Assembly (NCBI GenBank): GCA_963704755.1
Contig: OY969938.1
Span: 1,380,001 to 1,412,000 of the forward strand
Length of the DNA: 32,000 bases
Direction: 5' to 3'
From: an uncultured Chloroflexia bacterium
Lineage (GTDB): Bacteria; Chloroflexota; Anaerolineae; Anaerolineales; Anaerolineaceae
A program made the translations under genes and the position numbers. The notes beneath the pieces were generated by a model that was given only the letters and a program-made list of their open reading frames with translations, had not been told where the DNA came from and searched no databases. Below are positions 6,073 through 31,487 of the stretch, piece after piece (the first letter of the stretch is position 1; each line of letters starts with the position of its first letter).

Positions 6073-6797
6073 TGACTACACCAACCTTCACTGACACACA
6101 GATTATGCACTTCGACCCGGCTGAGCTCGGTCTGGATGTGGATTGGGTCCTGCAAGGCCAGGGCATCGACCCTCAAACCGCGCGTTCACACCATCCGCGC
6201 CTGGTAGATCTGGCCGAGCGCGCCTTCGCCGACGGCTTACCCATGCTGCAACCGGTGGCGGCCGTACGTACTTTCGAAGTGTCCGGTTGGACACATAACA
6301 AGGTCAACTTGCAGCCGCAGGGCAGCCTATCCGGTGACGCCATCCGCCAGCACCTGATCAAAGCCAACCAGATCGCCGTCCTGGTCTATTCCATAGGTGG
6401 AGAAGTGGAGCAGCGCGTCTCTGCCGAGATGAGCCGAAATGGCGCTTATGCCATCGCCCTGGACGGGCTGGCCAACGCAGCCGTGGACGCCCTGGGCGGG
6501 GTAATCTACCACCGGCTCGAATCGATCGCCAGACAGTCGGACTGGAACCTTTCTATCTTCCTTAGCCCTGGAATGGCGGGCTGGAGCGTGGAAGAGGGCC
6601 AGCCACAGGTCGTCCGCTTGCTCGATCCGGCCCTGATTGGGCTCAAAATTACACCCGCCTGGATGATTGCGCCCCAAAAATCCTCTTCGGCCGTGCTGGG
6701 CATGGGCAAAATGCTGGAAACGGGCAGCACCTTACCCTGTGACTATTGCACCCTGCAAGGCACCTGCCATTACCATGGACGCATGCACGACGGATAA
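6072..6797 (+). CDS. Protein resembling the vitamin-B12-dependent methionine synthase activation (AdoMet-binding) domain, with a C-terminal Cys cluster.
   Basis: The track ORF 6051..6797 starts at a TTG. An in-frame ATG at 6072 overlaps the upstream stop (TGATG). The block AIALDGLANAAVDALG...FLSPGMAGWSVEEGQPQV..LLD...IGLKITPAWMIAPQKSSSAVLGMG looks like the SPGYG.W...Q / M.P.KS motif of that domain. The tail is CDYCTLQGTCHYH. Confidence 0.5.
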   Translation: MTTPTFTDTQIMHFDPAELGLDVDWVLQGQGIDPQTARSHHPRLVDLAERAFADGLPMLQPVAAVRTFEVSGWTHNKVNLQPQGSLSGDAIRQHLIKANQIAVLVYSIGGEVEQRVSAEMSRNGAYAIALDGLANAAVDALGGVIYHRLESIARQSDWNLSIFLSPGMAGWSVEEGQPQVVRLLDPALIGLKITPAWMIAPQKSSSAVLGMGKMLETGSTLPCDYCTLQGTCHYHGRMHDG

Positions 6798-7029
6798 TTT
6801 GTAATTACTCAGCCACTTAGAGGATGAGGGTGTTTTTATTATTTTTTGATGGGGTAAAGCCCAGAGCAATCGCATCATGCCAAATTGGCCCTAGCAGGCA
6901 TACTGCAATCGCTCCGAGGTAAAGCCCATATTTGAGGTGTTGCCGCCCGGGATATAATTAGATGGGTAGCGGGGAGGATCCATCCCGAGACACTCCCCGG
7001 TAAGAATTCATACCCATAGCGAGGTTCTC

Positions 7030-7452
7030 ATGCGACCTTCCTGGGATTCATATTTTATGAAAATAGCCCAAGATGTGGCCCTGCGCAGTACCTGTGACCG
7101 GGCCATGGTGGGTTCAGTCCTGGTCCGCGAAAAACATATCATCTCAACCGGCTATAACGGCTCACCGGCCGGGCTGGATCACTGTGAGGATGTGGGCCAT
7201 CTGATGGTGGACGGGCATTGCGTGCGTACCGTCCATGCCGAGGTCAATGCGATCGTTCAAGCGGCTGTGTTTGGGCTGACTACCCGCGACGCCACATTTT
7301 ACGTCACGCATTTCCCCTGCTTGAACTGCACCAAGACCTTGATCAACGCCCGGATTGCCCGCCTGGTTTATCAAGAGGCTTACCACGTCGATCTGATCGC
7401 CATGGAGTTCTTGCAGAAAGCCGGCATCGATATTGTCCAATTGCAAAAGTAA
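7030..7452 (+). CDS. Deoxycytidylate (dCMP) deaminase / ComEB-type cytidine-deoxycytidylate deaminase.
   Basis: The zinc-binding signatures HAEVNAI and PCLNCTK are present. At 140 aa the size fits, and a GAGG lies upstream of the ATG. Confidence 0.9.
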   Translation: MRPSWDSYFMKIAQDVALRSTCDRAMVGSVLVREKHIISTGYNGSPAGLDHCEDVGHLMVDGHCVRTVHAEVNAIVQAAVFGLTTRDATFYVTHFPCLNCTKTLINARIARLVYQEAYHVDLIAMEFLQKAGIDIVQLQK

Positions 7453-7531
7453 AGGTGACTGCCCAGGCAGGGCCAGAAGAGAAGGGTGAGTAGTTGCAAG
7501 TAAATTCGAATAAGGGAGCGGAGCTGCATCA

Positions 7532-8581
7532 ATGAACATCGAAGGCACTTCTCTGTACCAAGAGATCCACGAACAACCGCAAGTGGTGAGCAACCTGATT
7601 GCCAATGGCCTGCGGCCGATCCAGGAATTGGCTGATCGCATTCGCAAAGACGATATTCACCAGGTGGTCATTGCCGCGCGCGGCACCAGCGACAACGCCG
7701 GGCGGTATGCCCAATACCTGCTCGGGCTGGAAAACCAGATCCTGGTCAGCCTGACCACTCCCAGCCTGTTTTCGATCTATCACCAGCCGCCCAACCTCAA
7801 GGGGACCCTGGTCCTGGGCATCAGCCAGAGCGGGAAAAGCCCCGACCTGGTCAGCGTCCTGGAGGAAGCCCGCCGCCAGGGGGTCGCGACCGCCGCCATC
7901 ACCAACTTCCCCGATTCCGACCTGGCCGAGACAGCCGATCACATCATCCCGTTGATGGCCGGCCAGGAATTTTCCCTGGCTGCCACCAAAACCTATACCG
8001 CCGAATTGACCGTGCTGGCTGCCTTGAGCGCCATACTCAGCCGGGATAAAGGCCGCCTGGACGAACTTGCGCAGGTCCCCGAGGCCATTTCAGCCGTCCT
8101 GCAACGCGAGGGTGAAATCGAGCGCATTGCCGAACGCTACCGGTATATGCAGCGCTGCGTAACCATCGGACGTGGCTTGAACTATGCCACCGCCTTCGAA
8201 CTCTCGCTCAAATTGAAAGAGCTGACCTATACTACCGCCGAGCCGTACTCCAGCGCGGACTTCTTACACGGCCCTATGGCCGTCATCGAGCGCGGTTTCC
8301 CCGTGATCGTCGTCGCCCCCACCAGTGTATTGTTGCCTGAATTGGAAGAATTTATCCAGCAGCTCAATGAACGCAGCGCCGAGGTTGTGGTCATCAGCGA
8401 TAATCCAGAGATCATCGCCCAAAGCACCATAGCCTTGCCATTGCCCAAACGCCTGCCGGAACACATCTCTCCTATCGCCGCCATCGTACCGGCTCAGATC
8501 TTTGCCATGCACCTGGCCTTCACCCGCGGTATCGACGTGGATCACCCGCGTGGCCTGCACAAGGTAACCGAAACGCTCTAG
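7532..8581 (+). CDS. Double SIS-domain phosphosugar isomerase/deaminase (GlmS isomerase-domain-only, AgaS/FrlB-like).
   Basis: Motifs seen: [18 protein letters not shown] and [10 protein letters not shown] (SIS P-loop-like motif), with a second SIS half ([22 protein letters not shown]). No amidotransferase domain. An RBS (GGGAGCGGAG) lies upstream. Confidence 0.75.
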
Positions 8582-8639
8582 CCGGTGTGCCAATTTCATT
8601 GGCAAGTGTGCTGGAGCATCATATTGAATGTGAGGAAAA

Positions 8640-9146
8640 ATGCCCGTCCCATTGGTCAACCAATTGATGTTTGCCCGCAGTGAATTTGCCCGCAGCCTGG
8701 ACGGAGTTTCTGCCACGGACGCTGTGTCTCGGCTGGAACCGTTCAACTGCCTGAGCTGGATCCTTGGCCACCTGGCCTCTCAGGAACAGACTTACTGGGT
8801 ACTGATCGCCCAGGGAAAATCGCTTTACCCCGACCTGCACCGCATCGTCGGCACCGGATCGCCCGCCAGCACACCCCCGTTCGAGGAAATGTGGACCACC
8901 TGGCGCGAAGTCACTGCCGCGGCCAACACGTTCCTGCAGGCCCTGACCCTGGCCGACCTGACCCGCCACATGGAGTGGAAAGGCCAGCCCCGCCCTGAAA
9001 GCATCGGCACCATGCTGGAACGTAACCTCTATCACTATTGGATCCACCTGGGTGAGATTTTAACCATCCGTTCGGCAATGGGACATCAAAATATTCCCAA
9101 CTTTATCGGCGACATGACCGCGGCCGCCTACACGCCTGAAAATTAA
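8640..9146 (+). CDS. DinB-family (DinB_2) four-helix-bundle metalloprotein.
   Basis: Characteristic His positions are seen (ILGHLASQEQ, NLYHYWIHLGEI). At 168 aa the size fits, and GAGGA lies upstream. Confidence 0.65.
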   Translation: MPVPLVNQLMFARSEFARSLDGVSATDAVSRLEPFNCLSWILGHLASQEQTYWVLIAQGKSLYPDLHRIVGTGSPASTPPFEEMWTTWREVTAAANTFLQALTLADLTRHMEWKGQPRPESIGTMLERNLYHYWIHLGEILTIRSAMGHQNIPNFIGDMTAAAYTPEN

Positions 9147-9188
9147 TCCGCCGGCGGTAACCGTTCAGTCTACCGAGTAAGAACCCCC

Positions 9189-9237
9189 GATTTGAGGCAT
9201 TTGCGGTCGGAGTCTTTGACCGCAAATGCCTCAAATC
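9189..9237. repeat. Perfect 20-bp-stem hairpin, family 1 (GATTTGAGG-TTTGCGG type). Probable terminator of the DinB gene.
   Basis: The arm gatttgaggcatttgcggtc (9189-9208) is the exact reverse complement of 9218-9237, with a 9-nt loop. Related copies lie at 25187 and 27903. Confidence 0.8.
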
Positions 9238-9501
9238 AGGGAGCTTTTTAAGTAAACCCGTAATCCGATTGACTGGTCTCCAGGCCAAATCATAAATCCC
9301 CCCAACCCACTTAGCAAGGGGGCAAGGACCAGCGAGCTATTCCCCCCTTGGAGGTCGTGAAGCATTCAGAATACGCGCATGAATTCTTGAAAACCTGCTA
9401 TCGTATGGCGCCGAATATAGGCCGGGAGGTTCTTCACAGCCTCAACAAGGGGGGCAAAGGGGGGATTCTTTCTGCTTGCGAAGTAAAATATATTTTCCAT
9501 A

Positions 9502-9888: not shown

Positions 9889-11103
9889 ATGAGTCTGGAA
9901 CATTTTTCGATCATCGAATCTACACTGCGCGAGGGTGAACAGTTCGTCAATGCATTTTTCACCACCGAGCAGAAAATTCAAATAGCCCACCTGCTGGACG
10001 ATTTTGGGGTGGAATACCTCGAGCTGACCACCCCGGCCGCCTCCACCCAAAGTGCGCGTGACTGCGAAACCATCGCCGGCCTGGGCCTGCGCGCCAAAAC
10101 CCTCACCCATACCCGCTGCAATATCAATGACGTGCGCCAGGCCGTCGAGACCGGTGTGGATGGGGTGGATATTGTGATCGGTACCTCATCCTATCTGCGT
10201 GAGTTCAGCCATGGCAAGAGCATCGACACCATCATCGAAATGGCCCAGGAAGTGTTGGAATATCTGAGCCATTTCAACGTAGAAATGCGCTTCAGCACCG
10301 AAGATTCCCTGCGCAGTGACCCGGCCGACCTCTTCCGGGTGTACGCAGCCGTCGACAAGCTGGGCGTCAACCGGGTCGGCATCGCCGACACGGTGGGAAT
10401 CGGTAACCCCCGCCAGATTTACGAACTGGTCAGTGAACTGCGCTCGCGCGTCCACGCCGATATCGAATTCCACGGCCACAATGACACCGGCTGCGCCATC
10501 GCGAATGCCTTCGCCGCCCTGGAAGCCGGCGCCACCCACATCGATACCAGCATTCTGGGCATCGGCGAACGCAACGGCATCACCCCCCTGGGCGGCCTGG
10601 TCGCCCGCCTGTACGCCATAGATCCCGGGCTGGTATCCAAATACAACCTGCCCATGATGCTGGAGCTCGACCAGACCATCGCCAAAATGGTGGGGGTGGA
10701 CATCCCTTTCAACAATTACATCACCGGTTTCTCGGCCTTCACCCATAAAGCCGGCATCCACGCCAAAGCCGTGCTCAACAACCCCTCAACCTACGAAGTG
10801 CTGCGGCCCGAAGATTTCGGCCTGACCCGCTACATCCACATCGCCCACCGCCTGACCGGCTGGAACGCCATCCGCTACCGCGCCGACCAGTTGAACATCC
10901 CCCTGACCGACGACGAAATCAAAAGTATCACCGAACGGATCAAACAGCTCTCCGACCAGTACAACATTACCCTCGATGAAGTTGACCGGCTGCTCTACGC
11001 GGCCAGCTCGAACGCTGACATTACCGCTGAAACTGTAGTCGAAACCGCTACCCCCTTACTCAATCCGGAAAGGACTTCCCAAAATGGGACAAACGCTCTC
11101 TGA
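9889..11103 (+). CDS. hcs: Homocitrate synthase (AAA lysine pathway).
   Basis: [26 protein letters not shown] and [15 protein letters not shown] are near-identical to the blocks I recall from Thermus thermophilus HCS. At 404 aa the size fits. The genomic context is homoaconitase, HICDH and LysX. Confidence 0.85.
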
Positions 11104-12337
11104 ACAAATTCTTTCGCATGCCTCCGGCCGCTCGATCCGCCCGGGCGACCTGGTTATCGTTGAACCGGAAGTGGTGATGAGCCACAATTCGTTGACTCCC
11201 AGTATTATTAAAATCGCCCAACAGGAATTAGGGATGACCGAGATCCGCCACCCGGAGCGGCTGGTCTTCGTCCTCGACCACGTTTCGCCGCCTTCCACGG
11301 TCGGCACGGCCAATGCGCAGAAAGTGGTCCGTACCTTCGCCCAGGAGAACAATGTGCGCCTGTTCGACGTAGGCCGCGGCATCTGTCACCAGGTGCTGGT
11401 AGAAGAACGTATCGCTGCGCCCGGCAAAATTGTGGTGGGCTCCGATTCGCACTCCACCGGCTATGGTTCGGTATGCGCCTTCGGCACTGGCATGGGCTCC
11501 ACCGACGTGGCCCTGGTGTGGGCCACCGGGCGCACCTGGCTGCGCGTGCCCGAAACGATCCGCATCCGGGTGCATGGCCGCTTTAGCCAATGGGTGGGGG
11601 CCAAAGACCTGGCCCTGAAAATTTGCCAGACCCTGACCATTGCCGGCGGAAACTACGCCGCGCTAGAATATCACGGCCTGGATTGGCTGGACCTGCCCGG
11701 CCGCCAGACCCTGGCCAGCATGGCCGTCGAGGTTGGCGCGAAAGTCGGCCTGGTACCGCCCAGCGGGGAAGCTGCCCGCGATTGGGATGTACCGGATTGG
11801 CTGTTCGTCGATCCTGAAGCGAGCTATGCCCGAACGGTGGACATCGATTTGGACGAATTACACCCACAGGTTTCCATCCCGCACGCGGTCGACCACGTCG
11901 CGGACCTGCCCGAAGTGGCCGGCACCCATGTGGATATGATCTTCCTGGGTACCTGTACCAACGGGCGCTACGAAGATATGCGCGCCGCCGCCAATATCCT
12001 GCGCGGCCGGCACGTCGCCAGCAGTGTGCGCATGCTGGTTACCCCCGCCTCCAGCCGCGAGATGGCCCGCGCGGCCGCCGATGGCACCCTGACCGAGCTG
12101 ATCGAAGCCGGCGCCGTGCTGACCTCGCCCGGCTGCGGCGCCTGTATGGGCCGCCACCAGGGTACCCTGGGTGAAAACGACGTCTGCCTGTCCACCGGCA
12201 ACCGCAATTTCCGTGGCCGTATGGGCGCGCCCACCTCGCAAATCTACCTGGCCTCCGCTGAAGTGGCCGCCGCCACCGCCCTGACCGGGGTCATCACCCA
12301 CCCGGCTGAGGTTGCCGTGGAAAACGCCCGCGCATAA
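11084..12337 (+). CDS. hacA: Homoaconitase / 3-isopropylmalate-dehydratase-type large subunit (short archaeal-type, 417 aa).
   Basis: Aconitase family motifs are present: [16 protein letters not shown] and SPGCGACMG (Fe-S Cys ligands). It overlaps hcs by 20 nt. The homoaconitase role is inferred from context, not from sequence alone. Confidence 0.8.
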
Positions 12338-12366: not shown

Positions 12367-12582
12367 AGGGCAAAAAGCGCCGGCCAAACAGCCCATGGGT
12401 TTGTTAAACCAGCGCTGTGCCCCCCTTCCCCGCTTCCCCCCAAATCAAAAACCGATTTGGAGGGAAGGGCCAGATTCCTCCCCTAAAATCCGCACTTTGG
12501 ATTTTGGGGGAGGCCAGGAGGGGGCAAAAAGCGCCGGCCAACCAACCCATTGGCTTGTTAAACTAGCGCTGTGCCCCCTTTC
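12367..12582. repeat. Two direct repeats of about 62 bp, each a hairpin, flanking two smaller hairpins within the hacA-hacB spacer.
   Basis: gagggcaaaaagcgccggccaaacagcccatgggtttgttaaaccagcgctgtgcccc (12367-12425) versus gagggggcaaaaagcgccggccaaccaacccattggcttgttaaactagcgctgtgcccc (12518-12578). The inner hairpins are cttccccccaaatc/gatttggagggaag and cctcccctaaaatcc/ggattttgggggagg. Confidence 0.75.
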
Positions 12583-12637
12583 CCGAACCTGTTACCTAAA
12601 TCTTCATTATCATTTAGCTGATAAAAAGGAGTTATCG

Positions 12638-14140: not shown

Positions 14141-14800
14141 TAAACCACGAAGAATTTAACCACGGAGGCACGGACCCTGGCACCGCCCGCCAGGGCAGGT
14201 GGGGCACGGAGAAGAAAAGAGTTTATCCCTGAGCACACAGAGGCCACAGAGAAGAAAGAGGAGAAATGAGTAAAATTGATGGCCGAAAGGACAAAGACCT
14301 GCAGCGGATCGGCCCGGTCTCCAGACCGAGGCCGCTCTTCATTGCAAATTAGTGGTTCGCTGCGATTCGGGTCGTGCGTTTGGTTGTCGTTGCGAGCGGT
14401 TTGTGCGACCCTGCACCTGCGGTTCTGGGCAGGTGAGCAATATCAACAATACCCGAATAGCTCAATGGCCAGCGTTGAGATTGCCACTGGCAGCAAAAAA
14501 CGCTGCCTTCACAACGACAACCAAACGCAAAACCTGAATCGCAGGCAATTCCTTATTTGCGTAGAAGAGCGGCCTCGGTCTGGAGACCGGGCCGATCCAC
14601 CTTAGGCCATCGCTCTTTTAAACAGGACCTTCTCATCCTCTCTTTCTTTTCTCTGTGAACTCTGTGTACTCTGTGGTTAAATTCCTTTTTTCTCCGTGCT
14701 CTGAGATTAATCCCTTTCTTCTCCGTGTTCCACCTGCCCTGGCGGGCGGTGCCAGGGTCCGTGCCTCCGTGGTTTATCTTTCTTCGTGGTTATTTTTTCT
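14141..14800. repeat. Nested imperfect palindrome of about 660 bp. It has outer CTCCGTG/CTCTGTG-type arms, a 35-bp core inverted repeat and an inner inverted repeat around a unique centre of about 110 bp.
   Basis: 14158-14202 is the exact reverse complement of 14730-14774 (45 bp). The core ggatcggcccggtctccagaccgaggccgctcttc (14306-14340) is the reverse complement of 14564-14598. The inner inverted repeat is cgattcgggtcgtgcgtttggttgtcgttg versus caacgacaaccaaacgcaaaacctgaatcg. Confidence 0.85.
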
Positions 14801-15784: not shown

Positions 15785-15865
15785 GGATCGGCCCGGTCTC
15801 CAGACCGAGGCCGCTCTTATTGGCCGGCCAATAAGAGCGGCCTCGGTCTGGAGACCGGGCCGATC
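15785..15865. repeat. 81-bp palindrome made of two abutting copies of the same 35-bp core found in the 14141-14800 element.
   Basis: ggatcggcccggtctccagaccgaggccgctctta ttggccggccaa taagagcggcctcggtctggagaccgggccgatc. The left flank (15722-15765) is rich in GGCAACGAGG-type words; the right flank carries their complement. Confidence 0.85.
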
Positions 15866-15984
15866 GCTTTGGCCAATTGAGCTTCCTGCCAGATTACTGT
15901 GGTGACTGATCGCCTCCTTGCCTTCTTACCTCATCCCCTCATCGCCTCATCGCCTCCTTGCCCTCTTACCTTATTGCCTTTTTG

Positions 15985-16176
15985 CCTCATCGCCTCGTTG
16001 CCTCATCGCCTCGTTGCCTCATCCCCTCGTTGCCTCATCGCCTCGTTGCCTCATCCCCTCGTTGCCTCATCCCCTCGTTGCCTCATCCCCTCGTTGCCTC
16101 ATCCCCTCGTTGCCTCATCCCCTCGTTGCCTCATCCCCTCGTTGCCTCATCCCTTATTGCCTCATCCCCTCGTTGC
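15985..16176. repeat. Tandem array of 12 copies of a 16-bp unit, CCTCATC(G/C)CCTCGTTG. Degenerate copies extend from about 15910 to about 16195.
   Basis: Direct reading. The units are in register every 16 nt from 15985. Only position 8 (G/C) and one unit (cccttattg) vary. Confidence 0.9.
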
Positions 16177-16332
16177 CTTCTCCCTCCCCTCTTTCCGCCG
16201 TATAATAGTTCCCAACAAGTTAACTAAATCGGGGTTATCCGCAAGCGCCGGTTAGAACTATAAGAATTTTCTCTTCAAAAAAATATCTCTCCTGCCTGCA
16301 CGCCCCTTAAAATTATCTGCATCGAGGAAAAT

Positions 16333-17085
16333 ATGGAATTCAAACCCATCTGGCGCGAAGAATTACACGTGCGCGCCTACGAAACGGATTTTAATAACCG
16401 TTGGAAACCGACCAGTTATTTCCAGGCGATGGAAGAAGCCGCCACCAACCATGCCCGTCACCTGGGCTATGATTATCCTGACATGCTGGCGCAAGGCATG
16501 GTCTGGGTGCTGACCCGCCTGAAAATCTATTTCTACGACTATCCCAGCATTCCCGACCCGGTTATTATCGAGACCTGGCCGCGGGGCATCCAGCAAAAGA
16601 TCTTTTTCACCCGCGATTTCCGCCTGTCTTCTCCCGAAGGCCGGCTTTATGCGGCCGCCACCTCTGCCTGGCTGCTGATCGACCCGGTCCAGCGCCGCAT
16701 GCTGCGCCCCGACCGCCTGTCCAACCATTTACCTCAGAACGAAGGCCATTTCGCGGTGAACGAACTGCTGGAAAAGATTCCCCAGCCGGATAATTTGCAG
16801 GAATGCGCCCGCGTCAAAGCCGAATACAGCGACATCGACATGATCGGGCACGTCAACAACGCCCGTTACATCGACTGGGTCAGCAACTGCTTCCCGATGG
16901 AACAATACCAAAATTCCCGCCTGGACTGGCTGCAAATCAATTACAACAACGAGGTCAAGGCAGGTGAAACGGTCGTCCTTTCGGCTGCCCAGAACAGCGC
17001 CGAACCCAACCGCTGGTTCATCCTGGGCAGCAACCCGTCCAGCGGAATGCCTAATTTCGAAGTCGATCTGGGGTGGCGGGAGTAG
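16333..17085 (+). CDS. Acyl-ACP thioesterase (FatA/FatB-like double hotdog, 250 aa).
   Basis: Motifs seen: YETDFNNRWKP, MVWVLTRLKI and DIDMIGHVNNARYIDW (catalytic D..GHVNN). GAGGA lies upstream. Confidence 0.8.
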   Translation: MEFKPIWREELHVRAYETDFNNRWKPTSYFQAMEEAATNHARHLGYDYPDMLAQGMVWVLTRLKIYFYDYPSIPDPVIIETWPRGIQQKIFFTRDFRLSSPEGRLYAAATSAWLLIDPVQRRMLRPDRLSNHLPQNEGHFAVNELLEKIPQPDNLQECARVKAEYSDIDMIGHVNNARYIDWVSNCFPMEQYQNSRLDWLQINYNNEVKAGETVVLSAAQNSAEPNRWFILGSNPSSGMPNFEVDLGWRE

Positions 17086-17150
17086 CTGTTAGCGGTTAGC
17101 GGTTGGCTTTTAGCGATTGGCCGTTAGCGGTTGGCCGTTAGCGGTCAGCT
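17086..17150. repeat. Heptamer-period tandem repeat arm (GTTAGCG / GTTGGCC variants).
   Basis: agctgttagcggttagcggttggcttttagcgattggccgttagcggttggccgttagcggtcagctg. It is complementary in type to the arm at 17330-17436. Confidence 0.8.
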
Positions 17151-17294
17151 GCAATGGAGGGTGTCGTTGAGCGCGGATGAAGGTAATGCCATCGATTTAC
17201 CTAAAGAAAGATATTTCCAGGCGTGCCTTCAACAAACTAGCAACGCTTGTCTATAATCACCTTGGGCACTAAGAAATGCTCCAGCTAAACCAAA

Positions 17295-17324
17295 AAGCAG
17301 GCCGGTCAAAAGACCGGCCTGCTT
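17295..17324 (-). terminator. 13-bp GC-rich hairpin. Probable terminator for the serpin gene (T-run on the minus strand).
   Basis: aagcaggccggtc aaaa gaccggcctgctt. On the minus strand the stem is followed by tttggttt. Confidence 0.6.
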
Positions 17325-17329
17325 CCTAA

Positions 17330-17436
17330 AAGCTAATGGCTAACAGCTAACCGCTAACGGCTAACCGCTAATCGCCAACAGCTAATCGCCAACAGCTAAT
17401 CGCCAACAGCTAATCGCCAACAGCTAACAGCTACCC
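17330..17436. repeat. Heptamer/14-mer tandem repeat arm (GCTAACAGCTAAC..., then 4 copies of CTAATCGCCAACAG).
   Basis: Direct reading. The first 26 nt (ctaaaagctaatggctaacagctaac) recur at 20966-20993. Confidence 0.8.
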
Positions 17437-17437
17437 G

Positions 17438-18817
17438 CTAATTGCTCGTTCCCGGATTCTCCATCCGGCCCATGAACAAAACCGACCCGCTGGTGTTATC
17501 CAGGATCATGAAGATGAACGGGTGATCCAGCGTGACGGTCACCTCATTCGCCATCATCGAGGTCAGACCGGCCACCACGCCGGTCGCAGCAGCCGCTTCG
17601 GTGCCGTCTTCGTCCACATTGACATAGGCCTTGTGAACGACATTGTTGATGTACAGGTCCTGGCGGCCATCCATCTTCGAAAAATCGGCCGCGGATGGGT
17701 CGAAAGCATCCGTCATTCCCAGCGCTTTGAGCGTGTCGCTCAAGCCGAAGGATGATTCGATCTTGAAGCTGGGCATGCTCAAGGTGACTTCCGCCGGTTG
17801 CAGGCCATCCCGGATCTTCTGGATCTGGTCGGCCGTGAGCGACTGCTCGAACGAACCCAGACTGCCTGCATCCGGCATAACTGCGATCATGGCGTAATTC
17901 CCGCCGGCATAGGGCATTTCGACCGCCTGGTAGCCATCGCTCTTCAGGTAAGTGAGCGAATCGCGGACGTGCATGGTCGGCGTTTGGATGGTCGAGCCGC
18001 CGGCTAGGGTGAAATCGGCCGGGGCTGTCTGGCTCTTATCGAACGGGTACTGCCAGGCTGCCTTGAAATAGATCGCGTTGGCCAGCACCAGGCGGGTCAT
18101 CGGGTCGATTGCCCCTTGCGGAATAAGGTCCTGGATTTTGTTGGCGGTCTGGTCGGCCACCCACTGGTTGATCTGCTGGCGGACTGTCTCAGAATCCTGG
18201 AAGTCCACCGGGTAGATCCCGCTGCCATAATATTGCGCCAGGGTATCCAGAAAGGCCGGCAGGAAATCGAAATCATGCTGAGCCCAGATCGAATTGGCGA
18301 TATCCAGCTTGAAGCCACCCTTTGTCGAGCTATTCTGGCCGCCCTCCAGGGACTGGTCCAGGGCATTGAAGGCCGGGTTCAGCCGGCCGGCAGGCCGGCT
18401 GAAGTGCAGCGTGTCCGCCATCTGGGTGGCGGTATCGTTATTGGCGCCGCTGGCGGTCATCGCCAGGGCCAGTGAAATACTGTAAGGTGAAAAGAACAGG
18501 TTGCCATCCTGGCCGCGCAACTGCTGGTAAAGCGCCGTCGCAAAGGCGGTGTTATCGCTGACCAGTTGCTGAATGTCGTCCTGCGAGACGGTTGCATCAG
18601 TTATGCGGGGCTGGTTCGAGACCAGTTCGACCCCGGGTTGGGCAGGTGTTTTCACGGTATCCTCCCCGGTCTGGGTGGGAGCTGGCGTTATGGGGACGGC
18701 CGGGCCGACGGGAGTCACCGTTTGCGCCGGTGAAGCGGTTGCAGCCGGGCTGCAGGCGGTCAGCCCCAGAAGGAACACCAGGCCAAAAAGAAATATATTA
18801 CGGATATTGGCTTTCAA
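17438..18817 (-). CDS. Serpin-family protease inhibitor, lipoprotein form (459 aa).
   Basis: Signal peptide plus lipobox FLLGLTAC, then a Pro/Thr linker. The serpin body includes NLFFSPYSISLALAM, NAIYFKAAW and the C-terminal signature DHPFIFMILDNTSGSVLFMGRMENP. Confidence 0.85.
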   Translation of the reverse strand: MKANIRNIFLFGLVFLLGLTACSPAATASPAQTVTPVGPAVPITPAPTQTGEDTVKTPAQPGVELVSNQPRITDATVSQDDIQQLVSDNTAFATALYQQLRGQDGNLFFSPYSISLALAMTASGANNDTATQMADTLHFSRPAGRLNPAFNALDQSLEGGQNSSTKGGFKLDIANSIWAQHDFDFLPAFLDTLAQYYGSGIYPVDFQDSETVRQQINQWVADQTANKIQDLIPQGAIDPMTRLVLANAIYFKAAWQYPFDKSQTAPADFTLAGGSTIQTPTMHVRDSLTYLKSDGYQAVEMPYAGGNYAMIAVMPDAGSLGSFEQSLTADQIQKIRDGLQPAEVTLSMPSFKIESSFGLSDTLKALGMTDAFDPSAADFSKMDGRQDLYINNVVHKAYVNVDEDGTEAAAATGVVAGLTSMMANEVTVTLDHPFIFMILDNTSGSVLFMGRMENPGTSN

Positions 18818-18952
18818 ATCGCACTCCTTTCACTGAGCAGTCCTCTCTGATTATAGCAAGCCGGTCAATTTCTACCCCATAGACGCCAAAAATCCCCGGC
18901 AGGTTCCTCTATTGATTTACCTTTGGTTACAACTCAGGCTAGTTCTGAAATT

Positions 18953-19009
18953 AGGGGTGTTTTATTATTTTTCGCATGCTTCGCATGCGAAAAATAATAA
19001 AACACCCCT
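18953..19009. repeat. Perfect 27-bp-stem hairpin, family 2 (AGGGGTGTTTTATT...CGCATGC type).
   Basis: aggggtgttttattatttttcgcatgc (18953-18979), loop ttc, then the exact reverse complement at 18983-19009. Confidence 0.85.
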
Positions 19010-19298
19010 CTCTTTTCCGGTAGCTGGCCGTTCCGGCCAAAGCATTCTCGGGTTGGAAACCCGAGCTGCGCTGCTTAAACGGCAGCTAAAGCTGCACCTA
19101 CAAAAACACAAAGCCCCACCTTCGTAGGGCTCCTTCTTGGCAAGGTGCGATCCTATAGCCAGAGTTATGCCCGTCCGGTGTTTTCTCAGGTTGGGAACCC
19201 GAGTTACCCATCAAGAGAACCTGGCGAAGGCCAGGTTTTGTGTTTTTGTTGCCGCGACCTCGGTCGCCACCGGGCGCCGGGCTCACCAAAACCTCGAT

Positions 19299-20618: not shown

Positions 20619-21003
20619 GGAAGGGACCAGGCAACGAGGCGACAAGGCAACGAGGTGCAGGTGTAGGGTGGGTGCAGGGCTCGAATATTACCCGAGCGGA
20701 TTATCCATCTGCATGACATACCAAACCTTGCCCGTAACCCACCGTTTTACATTCTACAGGTAAAGGGACCAGGCAACTAGGCGACAAGGCAAAGAGGTGT
20801 AGAGTGGGTGCAGGGCTCAAAAATTACCCGAGCGGATTACCGATCGGCATAACATACCAAGCTTGCCCGTAACCCACCGTCTGGTTGTAAAATGGTGGGT
20901 TACGGGCAAGCTTGATACGTCAGAAAACTTAATATTTGCCAATTTTCTCAATGAGCCCTGCACCCACCCTTGCTAAAAGCTAATGGCTAACAGCTAACAG
21001 CCA
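20619..21003. repeat. Composite intergenic repeat: two direct repeats of about 140 bp, a 21-bp-stem hairpin, a distal 17-bp inverted repeat, and word-repeat arms shared with the 15.7-kb and 17.3-kb elements.
   Basis: gggaccaggcaacgaggcgacaaggcaacgagg...cttgcccgtaacccaccg (20619-20761) is repeated from 20764. The hairpin is aagcttgcccgtaacccaccg/cggtgggttacgggcaagctt type. gggtgggtgcagggctc pairs with gagccctgcacccaccc. Confidence 0.75.
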
Positions 21004-21023
21004 ATGTCCTCGTCTTCTTCCCC

Positions 21024-22439: not shown

Positions 22440-22579
22440 GGTACCAGTCAGGGAAAAATCATCCTTTTGTATTTATCAAAAGTAACTGCTCAGGCAAGTG
22501 CGCAAGGCGAAGACCTCTGCTGTAGCCAAGTAGTTACGATCAAAATACTAAGGGATTCCTGGCCGTTAAACTAAGCCGT

Positions 22580-22626
22580 TTGGATTTTATATTTTGGCGG
22601 CGTTGCCGCCAAAATATAAAATCCAA
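22580..22626. repeat. Perfect 22-bp-stem hairpin (AT-rich base, GC tip, 3-nt loop) in the GH3 5' leader.
   Basis: ttggattttatattttggcggc, loop gtt, gccgccaaaatataaaatccaa. Confidence 0.85.
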
Positions 22627-22675
22627 AACACGTTTTCCATTTCTTGCAAATTCTTACCTGGGAGGAAAAGGCATC

Positions 22676-25156: not shown

Positions 25157-25186
25157 ATTGTAACCACCCAGGTTTATCTACAAATC

Positions 25187-25241
25187 CCCGAATTTGATAT
25201 GTTTGCGGTGGCAAAGCCACCGCAAACATATCAAATTCGGG
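25187..25241. repeat. Perfect 26-bp-stem hairpin, family 1, downstream of GH3.
   Basis: cccgaatttgatatgtttgcggtggc, loop aaa, gccaccgcaaacatatcaaattcggg. Confidence 0.85.
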
Positions 25242-25271
25242 TTTCTCACCGGATGTAGTTAAATTACGGGG

Positions 25272-25329
25272 AGGTCGTTTTTATTATTTTTTGCATGCGA
25301 AGCGTGCAAAAAATAATAAAAACGACCTG
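25272..25329. repeat. 27-bp-stem hairpin, family 2 variant (one G-T pair).
   Basis: aggtcgtttttattattttttgcatgc, loop gaa, gcgtgcaaaaaataataaaaacgacct. It is followed by ggctgagtagttac. Confidence 0.85.
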
Positions 25330-25361
25330 TTCTTCTGCGATGGCTGAGTAGTTACATTTAA

Positions 25362-27762: not shown

Positions 27763-27902
27763 TCTGAACGCTTCGGCGGTGCAGGGATAATAAGTGATTA
27801 TATCTCATGCACCAGGCAAGTTAAATCAGGCTCAATGGCCATCACCACGGCAAATTCCAAAGACCCTTAAATCGTAACTGCTCAGCCTATCAGGTAAGAA
27901 AA

Positions 27903-27955
27903 CCGAATTTGAGGTGTTTGCGGGGGCTTCGCCCCCGCAAACACCTCAAATTCGG
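27903..27955. repeat. Perfect 25-bp-stem hairpin, family 1, in the divergent GT39/pepF intergenic region.
   Basis: ccgaatttgaggtgtttgcgggggc, loop ttc, gcccccgcaaacacctcaaattcgg. Confidence 0.85.
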
Positions 27956-28122
27956 GAACTTTCTAACATAAGTCTGAGTCCTCCGTGGTCATCTTTCTCC
28001 CCAGCCGGCAAAACCCCTGGCCGCATGTGGGGTAAAATTACCTTAACGCAACGCATCAAGATTTGCGTTCTATCCAACGAAAAACCTGTATAAAAACCTA
28101 AACCTTTTAGAAAGGCTGCAAT

Positions 28123-29891: not shown

Positions 29892-29940
29892 GAGCTGCTA
29901 ATGATAAAATTATTTTAACTACTCTGCTACCGCAAAAGAG

Positions 29941-29999
29941 AGGGGTGTTTTTATTGTTTTTCGCGTGCGAAGCACGCGAAAAACAATAAAAACACCCCT
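29941..29999. repeat. Perfect 28-bp-stem hairpin, family 2.
   Basis: aggggtgtttttattgtttttcgcgtgc, loop gaa, gcacgcgaaaaacaataaaaacacccct. The flanks are homologous, in inverse orientation, to those of the 18953 copy. Confidence 0.85.
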
Positions 30000-30105
30000 G
30001 ATTTCCGAACTAGCCTGAGTAGTAACAAATTATTCGGCTCGTGCAAACGGGCCAAGCGGGAAACTGATCCTGATACCCATTAATGTTCGCATTGGGGAGG
30101 AATAA

Positions 30106-31331: not shown

Positions 31332-31343
31332 CGGTGATAAACC

Positions 31344-31394
31344 CGAAAATAATGGAATTGCAATGGCAAAGCCATTGCAATTCCATTATTTTCG
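31344..31394. repeat. Perfect 24-bp-stem hairpin (AT-rich stem, TGGC-AAA-GCCA tip). Probable terminator.
   Basis: cgaaaataatggaattgcaatggc, loop aaa, gccattgcaattccattattttcg. Confidence 0.85.
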
Positions 31395-31487
31395 AGAACT
31401 TCCTCAACCCAAGAAACTGGTAAAATTCTTCAATTCAAATTCCTAAATAAATTTCCTTATGGCCCCAGGCCGATCCATGGAGTGAAA

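Follow-up and report, generated by a model that had tools for sequence, protein, structure and literature searches.

The subject of this analysis is an AT-rich hairpin element at positions 29915–30026 of a 32,000-nucleotide stretch of DNA (the window) from contig OY969938.1 of an uncultured Chloroflexia bacterium of the Anaerolineaceae, together with its relatives in the same window and elsewhere. [quoted passage not shown] The assignment, made from sequence comparison, follows from the fact that the elements possess the ends and the target-site duplication length of ISBst12-type ISs and yet are only 43–121 bp long and noncoding. The initial annotation had already noticed that the outer ends are inverted as in MITE terminal repeats; they proved to be true terminal inverted repeats, 8-bp target-site duplications were found at the complete copies and an empty site was recognised in a sister lineage, so that the MITE reading was upheld and was narrowed to the ISBst12 group by the match of the ends. 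Neither MITEs derived from ISBst12 nor the present elements were found described in the searchable papers; the kind of element itself is an ordinary one, here in a hairpin-rich form.

Four copies of this hairpin family (family 2) were located and are named A, B, C and D, all coordinates being positions in the window; at each of the four places the sequences previously reported were present. Copy B is a complete element of 112 bp on the minus strand, whose left end, as oriented, is at 30026; the extent of 29915–30027 first given for it was thus corrected to 29915–30026. It scored 114.9 bits with the covariance model described below. The terminal inverted repeat at 30013–30026 (minus strand) reads GTTACTACTCAGGC, with one mismatch to the consensus, and the opposite one at 29915–29928 (plus strand) reads TTAACTACTCTGCT and is degenerate, with three mismatches. 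The central perfect stem at 29941–29999 comprises 28 bp and a 3-nt loop, and the whole element is bounded by the duplication AAATTATT, present at 29907–29914 and again at 30027–30034 with all eight positions identical. A complete copy begins with a 14-nt terminal inverted repeat of the form GTAACTNCTCAGSC and about 13–17 nt of subterminal sequence, which lead to a perfect palindrome of 20–28 bp composed of an AT-rich stem, a G+C-rich apex and a loop of 3–4 nt; on the far side the subterminal sequence returns in mirrored form and is closed by the other terminal repeat.

Copy A (18926–19030, plus strand; 97.7 bits) contains the left terminal repeat at 18926–18939 and a perfect stem of 27 bp at 18953–19009. 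Its right terminal repeat is missing, the likeness to copy B stopping after GGTAGC at about 19030, and neither a right end nor a duplication was found farther downstream by eye or by a motif search allowing three mismatches. The reverse-complement kinship of A (plus) and B (minus) at about 90% identity was borne out, 91 of the 101 shared columns being identical. Both stems are uninterrupted Watson–Crick helices closed by a 3-nt loop, with fold z-scores of -12.4 for A and -11.1 for B relative to dinucleotide shuffles. They differ by T4 versus T5, ATTATT versus ATTGTT and GCATGC versus GCGTGC; each of these three differences is mirrored on the other arm and both stems remain perfect, as had been claimed.

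Copy C (about 25264–25355, minus strand) contains a terminal repeat at 25342–25355 and a stem at 25272–25328. Of the earlier description of this copy, the stem base AGGTCG/CGACCT and the conserved flank, here GGCTGAGTAGTTAC, were found as reported; the stem is not perfect, since it contains one apical mismatch in which GCATGC lies opposite GCGTGC, that is, a G-U on the plus strand and a C/A on the minus strand. Copy C is without a right end of its own and adjoins an element of another hairpin family (family 1). Copy D (6801–6850, plus strand) is a truncated half copy; the half copy noted before at 6826–6850 corresponds to its left stem arm, which is the only arm present, and the flank motif is additionally retained as a terminal repeat at 6801–6814. 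All of the elements in the window sit between open reading frames (ORFs) and contain none, being much too small to code for a transposase of about 450–500 amino acids; copy B lies 80 nt past an M3 peptidase gene and copy C between two convergent genes.

The conserved flank is a terminal inverted repeat common to elements with differing interiors, because the same motif, either as an inverted pair or single, also bounds family 1 and two mini elements. A search of the window with the flank motif GTAACTACTCAGSC gave 13 matches at up to three mismatches, against a mean of 2.5 in shuffled sequences, and none of 100 shuffles reached 13. The form GTAACTNCTCAGSC is found inverted at both ends in copy B, in the metagenome copies L063, L065 and L067 (see below) and in the two mini elements. 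Family 1 is represented by four copies with stems of 24–26 bp, three of them perfect, which differ from each other at many positions, all of them mirrored; three of the four carry the same ISBst12-type terminal repeat as family 2. These are the elements at 25160–25263 (plus strand; terminal repeat GTAACCACCCAGGT, 26-bp perfect stem), 27874–27985 (plus strand; GTAACTGCTCAGCC, 25-bp perfect stem) and 9157–9265 (plus strand; degenerate repeat GTAACCGTTCAGTC), the copy at 31343–31396 showing no recognisable end. The mini elements, of 56 bp (22482–22537, plus strand) and 43 bp (7455–7497, plus strand), consist of a terminal-repeat pair with no long hairpin and are flanked by TATCAAAA/GATCAAAA and AAGTAAAG/AAGTAAAT, respectively, each pair matching at seven of eight positions. 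In total, 9–10 elements with these ends occur in 28 kb of the window.

The duplications are identical at 8/8 positions for copy B and for L063/L065 and at 7/8 for both mini elements, L067 and the element of locus L083, whereas two random 8-mers taken from the window at a distance of 110 nt reach 7/8 or more with a probability of 0.0005. The region 25160–25355 deserves a separate mention: the family-1 hairpin and copy C stand back to back inside one outer terminal-repeat pair, whose flanks AATAAATT/ATTTAATT agree at 6/8 positions. Such an arrangement is that of a composite element with two hairpins or, alternatively, of two insertions lying side by side or nested.

The assignment to the ISBst12 group draws on ISDge4 of Deinococcus geothermalis, reported as a member of this group of the IS66 family with terminal repeats GTGACTACTCAGCA / GTAACTGCTCAGCA, an 8-bp direct repeat and a transposase of 449 amino acids (PMC12898284). 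Seven further IS copies were compared, the transposase being either annotated as IS66 family in the record or accompanied by PF03050 among the Pfam hits of the locus. Perfect 8-bp duplications, equal in length to those of the MITEs, flank five of the seven: the IS66-like element ISGka4 of the Geobacillus plasmid pHTA426 (ends GTATCTATTCAGCC / GTAACTATTCAGCC, duplication GACGAGTT), the IS of a Ca. Chlorohelix plasmid (Chloroflexota; GTAACAATTCAGCC / GTAACAGTTCAGAC, duplication AATTATTT), those of Deinococcus wulumuqiensis (GTAACTGCTCAGCA at both ends, duplication TAAAAATC) and Acaryochloris (GTTACTGCCCAGGC at both ends, duplication CTTCATTC), and that of metagenome locus L079 (GTAACTATTCAGCC / GTAACTATTCAGGT, duplication AAGAAATA). 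The IS of Bacillus thuringiensis (GTAACTACTCAGCT at both ends; flanks 5/8) and that of metagenome locus L081 (GTAACTACACAGGG / GTAACTACTCAGGA; flanks 3/8) showed no duplication.

The window repeats share the form GTAACTNCTCAGSC with these ISs and are identical to ISDge4 and the ISs compared at 12–13 of 14 positions; the 8-bp target-site duplication is likewise common to both, and the targets are mostly AT-rich. The ISs differ in being about 1.45–1.64 kb long with a transposase of 449–495 amino acids, whereas the window elements are of 43–121 bp and noncoding, and long perfect hairpins are not present in the ISs compared. In all three ISs checked for it (L075, L076 and L077) the transposase gene ends within the right terminal repeat, which contains its stop codon; this accounts for the conserved CTGA/TAG of the motif. 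ISBst12-type transposases are present in Chloroflexota, namely on the Ca. Chlorohelix plasmid and in a metagenome-assembled genome (MAG) of the Ktedonobacteraceae. No transposase was found among the 27 ORFs of the window scanned against Pfam, its low-G+C left end included; since the elements contain no ORF and no Pfam transposase match was obtained, they are not insertion sequences themselves but at most non-autonomous derivatives or passengers. A similarity to the ends of IS1 (GGTAATGACTCC) was dropped after direct reading of the ISBst12 ends. Searches of the literature on these end sequences and on IS66/ISBst12-derived MITEs yielded nothing relevant besides the ISDge4 paper. At locus L081, a pair of 23-bp ISBst12-type repeats (GTAACTGTTCAGCCAACCATGTC / GTAACTACTCACCCAGCCATGTC) surrounds two hydrolase genes and no transposase at 6156–8693, and a complete ISBst12-type IS at 9960–11433 adjoins this unit. 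Although the unit shows no visible target duplication, it may represent a non-autonomous element with cargo.

Related copies were sought in metagenomes by a scan demanding both arms of the AT-rich stem, which gave 11 loci, four of them chance hits on contigs of 23–35% G+C. In L063, L065, L067 and L070 (44–63% G+C), on contigs of Anaerolineae-like character, the stem is bounded by the same terminal repeat as in the window copies. L063 and L065 have the perfect 8-bp duplication GTTTATTG and L067 one of 7/8. The AT-rich stem TTTTTATTATTTTTTG is common to the metagenome copies, whose apices vary (GGTTGC, GGTGC, GTCCCGC) and are fully complementary, except for a single mismatch in L070. With respect to the window copies, both orientations score closely owing to the near-palindromic nature of the elements. 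The nuoB gene beside the L063 copy found its named matches in Anaerolineaceae MAGs at 77–82% identity. The L070 element (590–733) has the standard end GTAACTATTCAGGC on one side; a variant end GGTWCTTCTCAATAAA, of the type bounding the L083 element, takes its place on the opposite side and recurs immediately beyond the standard end, and the copy looks nested or hybrid.

A covariance model built from seven copies recovered A, B and C in the window as well as the copies of family 1, while 400 kb of unrelated DNA used as a control yielded no hit with an E value under 0.8. This control consisted of the loci of a scan of species-representative genomes with TTTTATTRTTTTTYGCRYGC, which had returned only 59 chance hits to a single arm, from unrelated AT-rich genomes, and not one true hairpin. 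The two-arm hairpin pattern had no match in viral contigs. A different kind of repeat was observed at locus L062 (59% G+C), where a three-hairpin unit without ISBst12-type ends is repeated at 2690–2870, 7660–7850 and 9000–9135. Its middle hairpin has a constant apex, GGCGGC-TTC/GAA-GCCGCC, and T5/A5 ends, and the stems differ greatly between copies while being perfectly complementary. In the window, a perfect AT-rich hairpin of 23 bp with a GGCGGC apex (TTTGGATTTTATATTTTGGCGGC gtt ...) at 22579–22627 resembles the L062 hairpins and is situated a short way upstream of the point at which the GH3 gene probably begins; no terminal repeat was seen alongside it.

The mobility of the elements is indicated by an empty site in related genomes, one of the checks proposed at the outset, which was found at one metagenome copy in a sister lineage; the site is therefore shown for a metagenome copy and not for a window copy. 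In L063 and L065 an element of 111 bp stands upstream of nuoB as CAATAAAC[element]CAATAAAC. In L083–L087, which share 96% identity with L063 in nuoB, a single CAATAAGC is present at the site occupied in L063/L065, and a different hairpin element of 93 bp, with flanks CTTATGTT/CTTATATT, is found 8 bp further on. Removal of each element together with one copy of its duplication left colinear sequences of 79 nt, so that each lineage represents the empty site for the insertion of the other. Neither element is present in more distant relatives (nuoB 85–88% identical). The two distinct hairpin MITEs (L063 1627–1753 and L083 2848–2964) are independent insertions upstream of nuoB, with cut sites 8 bp apart and target duplications overlapping by 1 nt. 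The AT-rich DNA near the promoter may therefore be a local hot spot for insertion.

At the window itself, the nearest syntenic relatives, with serpin, AlkZ-like, MFS and GH3 genes in the same order, have spacers of 14–207 bp compared to 206–465 bp of repeat-filled spacer in the window. No elements were found in the closest relatives (GH3 64–65% identical, syntenic), whose intergenic regions are compact. The nearest homologue of the window GH3 protein is 65% identical, and the named homologues belong mostly to Chloroflexota/Anaerolineae.

The stems of separate insertions and those of the same insertion in different samples gave two distinct pictures. Thirteen hairpins of families 1 and 2 contain 315 Watson–Crick pairs, no G-T pair as written and three mismatches, all of them C/A as written; frequent unpaired substitutions, which would have spoken against the initial annotation, were not encountered among separate insertions. 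The covariation seen first in two copies was reproduced when more were aligned, RNAalifold predicting 30 pairs for seven family-2 copies, of which 11 were changed on both sides. The mirrored differences include run-length changes and transversions. L065 and L063, which carry the same insertion, are distinguished at the base of one arm by an indel plus a substitution, and elsewhere by one subterminal change, none of them mirrored; the element accounts for 4 differing columns in 111 bp and the remaining 1,081 aligned columns for 12. A C-to-T change confined to the right arm likewise separates L084 and L087 from L083. Since paralogous stems are perfect and orthologous copies differ without compensation, the perfection of the stem belongs to the transposing or source lineages and not to each resting site. 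The proposal of selection acting site by site at the RNA or cruciform level is consequently not supported, the stem changes of the orthologous copies (L063/L065; L083 versus L084/L087) being uncompensated and Rfam offering no fit. The other explanation proposed with it, the templating of one arm from the other, does correspond to a known process, quasipalindrome template switching, although the orthologous copies do not show such action.

According to the mechanism which these observations suggest, a DDE transposase of the DDE_Tnp_IS66 type, encoded elsewhere, would bind both terminal repeats, and an 8-bp staggered cut would lead to insertion in AT-rich intergenic DNA, the outcome of which is seen in the duplications and in the one empty site. 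The hairpin is, on this reading, cargo situated outside the transposase recognition site, because ends of this kind enclose two or more hairpin families unrelated to each other and, in two elements, no long hairpin at all. The mirrored differences would mark separate source lineages of the element, and the perfection of the stem might be maintained in the transposing lineages by selection for foldback or by arm-to-arm templated correction during replication. Either of these two candidates, element-level selection for foldback or arm-to-arm copying, could keep the source lineages perfect, the data being compatible with both. An apex consisting of a G+C clamp and a triloop on an AT-rich shaft seems better suited to rapid single-strand folding than to the extrusion of a cruciform from duplex DNA.

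Several observations weigh against the assignment to ISBst12-type MITEs or against parts of it. Copies A, C and D are incomplete and have no target duplication that could be checked, and L070 lacks a recognisable duplication and has one variant end. The internal hairpin occurs in none of the full ISs compared, and an element can exist between the repeats without any long hairpin, as is seen from the mini elements. Furthermore, the decay after insertion rests on two sets of orthologous copies. The idea that foldback is required for mobility is weakened by the hairpin-less mini elements, unless these are products of deletion after insertion. That the palindrome is a working part of the MITE is regarded as unlikely in either of two forms. 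In one, a single-stranded foldback would position the repeats, about 100 bp apart, for the ISBst12 transposase, and only copies with an intact stem would keep transposing. In the other, the stems would be continuously re-perfected by arm-to-arm templated synthesis, giving compensatory evolution without selection and letting hairpin modules diversify and swap between elements with the same ends.

A related explanation, compatible with the MITE identity of the elements and itself judged unlikely, is that mutational copying and not selection keeps the stems perfect and the changes mirrored. The nascent strand of a long quasipalindrome would fold back and copy the opposite arm, so that a change is either erased or transferred. 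Such template switching, studied by Ripley and in the Lovett laboratory, is established in E. coli, where it makes imperfect inverted repeats perfect, and it would produce mirrored changes by copying arm from arm without any selection (PMC7202029); it has been demonstrated for short quasipalindromes in reporter genes of E. coli, yeast and phage T4, and is not known for MITE stems. It would account for the solely Watson–Crick pairing, as written, of the 13 hairpins of two families, for run-length changes and transversions which are impossible through a wobble intermediate, and for the L062 hairpins, in which a constant apex is joined to quite different, perfectly complementary stems. The numbers are small, however, and the perfection of the stems is explained just as well by a recent amplification of perfect master copies. 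Moreover, the base indel and substitution in L065 and the right-arm change in L084/L087 are uncompensated, and symmetrisation at resting sites is thus not fast on that time scale.

Selection of the hairpin at the RNA level, as a cis-acting structure in neighbouring transcripts such as a 3'-end stabiliser or an RNase III site, was judged distinctly unlikely as an explanation of the stems. The intergenic location of all copies, often just downstream of a gene, the very stable predicted folds and the fact that the single mismatches in C and L070 become G-U on one strand would agree with it, and both the transcription of MITEs and an influence of their folding on mRNA stability have been reported (PMC3733652). 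Nevertheless, the orthologous copies decay without compensation, and there is no U-tract and hence no intrinsic terminator. Wobble pairs are common in RNA stems, whereas no G-U as written and at most three on either strand occur among 318 stem positions. An Rfam match, for which a cmscan search had been proposed, was not obtained: with Rfam 15 no family reached the gathering threshold, and permissive settings returned only generic eukaryotic miRNA-precursor hairpin models, below the cut-offs and equal on both strands. The specific candidate of an intrinsic (Rho-independent) terminator was rejected, as on both strands a T-run precedes and an A-run follows the G+C apex and these runs pair with each other; none of the family-2 hairpins is listed by a terminator scan. 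Once inserted, copies may have a secondary function in the mRNAs of the genes beside them.

The palindromic, extragenic and numerous character of the elements also recalls repetitive extragenic palindromes (REPs) and the bacterial interspersed mosaic elements (BIMEs) built from them, or IS200/IS605-type elements, which would move as single-stranded DNA by means of a tyrosine (HUH) transposase such as RAYT. The tetranucleotide GTAG lies near one end, within the terminal repeat (GAGTAGTTAC), and GTAG-tagged repeats have been reported in Chloroflexi (PMC3733652). GTAG is, however, not in the repeat of copy A (GTTACAACTCAGGC), and this origin is made very improbable by the 14-nt terminal repeats, by duplications of 8 bp and by the ends shared with DDE-type ISBst12 elements. 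REPs are shorter, 20–40 bp compared to 93–121 bp for the hairpin elements, carry GTAG or CGTC as a tag, are served by tyrosine transposases and have neither terminal inverted repeats nor a target duplication, both of which are absent from IS200/IS605 as well. Hardly credible at all is an integron attC site or another target of site-specific recombination, to which the elements bear the superficial resemblance of imperfect palindromes of about 60–120 nt with conserved outer boxes and a variable centre. The stems of attC carry extrahelical bases, and the perfect stems found here are unlike them. In addition, single copies are scattered among housekeeping genes (lysine biosynthesis, GH3, peptidase) without cassette arrays, no integrase family was matched among the 27 window ORFs scanned against Pfam, no Rfam family reached its threshold, and the 8-bp duplications and the empty site indicate transposition.

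Among the closest known counterparts of the proposed ISBst12-type MITEs are the bacterial foldback MITEs, including the Correia/NEMIS elements of Neisseria, ERIC, RUP and the Nezha elements of cyanobacteria, which are moved in trans by a transposase recognising their ends (PMC3733652). In common with these, the window elements are small, noncoding and intergenic, occur in several copies within the window, possess terminal repeats and target duplications and form stable single-strand hairpins. They differ in the parent IS family and in the length of the duplication, which in Correia elements is TA. Furthermore, the ends of the window elements carry interchangeable hairpin modules (family 1, family 2 or none), and the central stems are perfect Watson–Crick palindromes of 20–28 bp, in contrast to imperfect palindromes which span the whole element.

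With 9–10 elements in 28 kb, a large share of the repeat-filled intergenic DNA in this Chloroflexota genome is accounted for, and the combination of GTAACTNCTCAGSC ends with an 8-bp duplication could serve as a signature for annotating such elements, which are hereby linked to an IS group whose transposition remains poorly characterised. The mirrored substitutions also call for caution in the discovery of RNA motifs, since they can stem from transposon subfamilies or palindrome-specific mutation besides RNA selection. If the hairpin were indeed needed for mobilisation, the elements would provide a small and convenient substrate for studies of IS66/ISBst12 transposition.

Housekeeping genes of the window include those for lysine biosynthesis by the alpha-aminoadipate pathway, together with genes for a serpin and for a GH3 enzyme. 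The segment 1–4000 has a G+C content of 34–38%, compared to 52–65% elsewhere (49% in one 1-kb bin), and its ORFs encode glycosyltransferases of families GT1, GT2 and GT4 and a methyltransferase, with no mobile-element genes; it looks like a horizontally acquired polysaccharide-synthesis island.

Other repeats, of different types, were noted in the remaining spacers. The genes for homoisocitrate dehydrogenase and LysX are separated by a spacer filled with long inverted repeats, whose arms measure 84–110 nt (14158–14774), and a perfect G+C-rich palindrome of 40+40 nt lies at 15786–15865, with partial copies at 14307–14339 and 14565–14614. A tandem array of about 25 copies with a period of 8/16 nt (CCTCGTTGCCTCATCC...) occupies 15863–16185 and has inverted matches 4.5 kb away at 20620–20655. 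Blocks of inverted heptanucleotide repeats (GCTAACN / GTTAGCN) flank the thioesterase–serpin spacer at 17080–17156 and 17314–17446 and recur at 20961–21016, upstream of the MFS gene. The 465-bp spacer between the AlkZ and MFS genes, which measures 33 bp in the nearest relative, contains repeat families of 40 and 66 nt with spacings of 142 and 136 nt (20621–20860 and 20836–20939), adjoined by a perfect G+C-rich hairpin of 23 bp (AAGCTTGCCCGTAACCCACC...). Finally, a direct repeat of 63 nt, 90% identical and with a spacing of 154 nt (12368–12430 / 12522–12584), overlaps the start of the ORF matching the C-terminal domain of aconitase.

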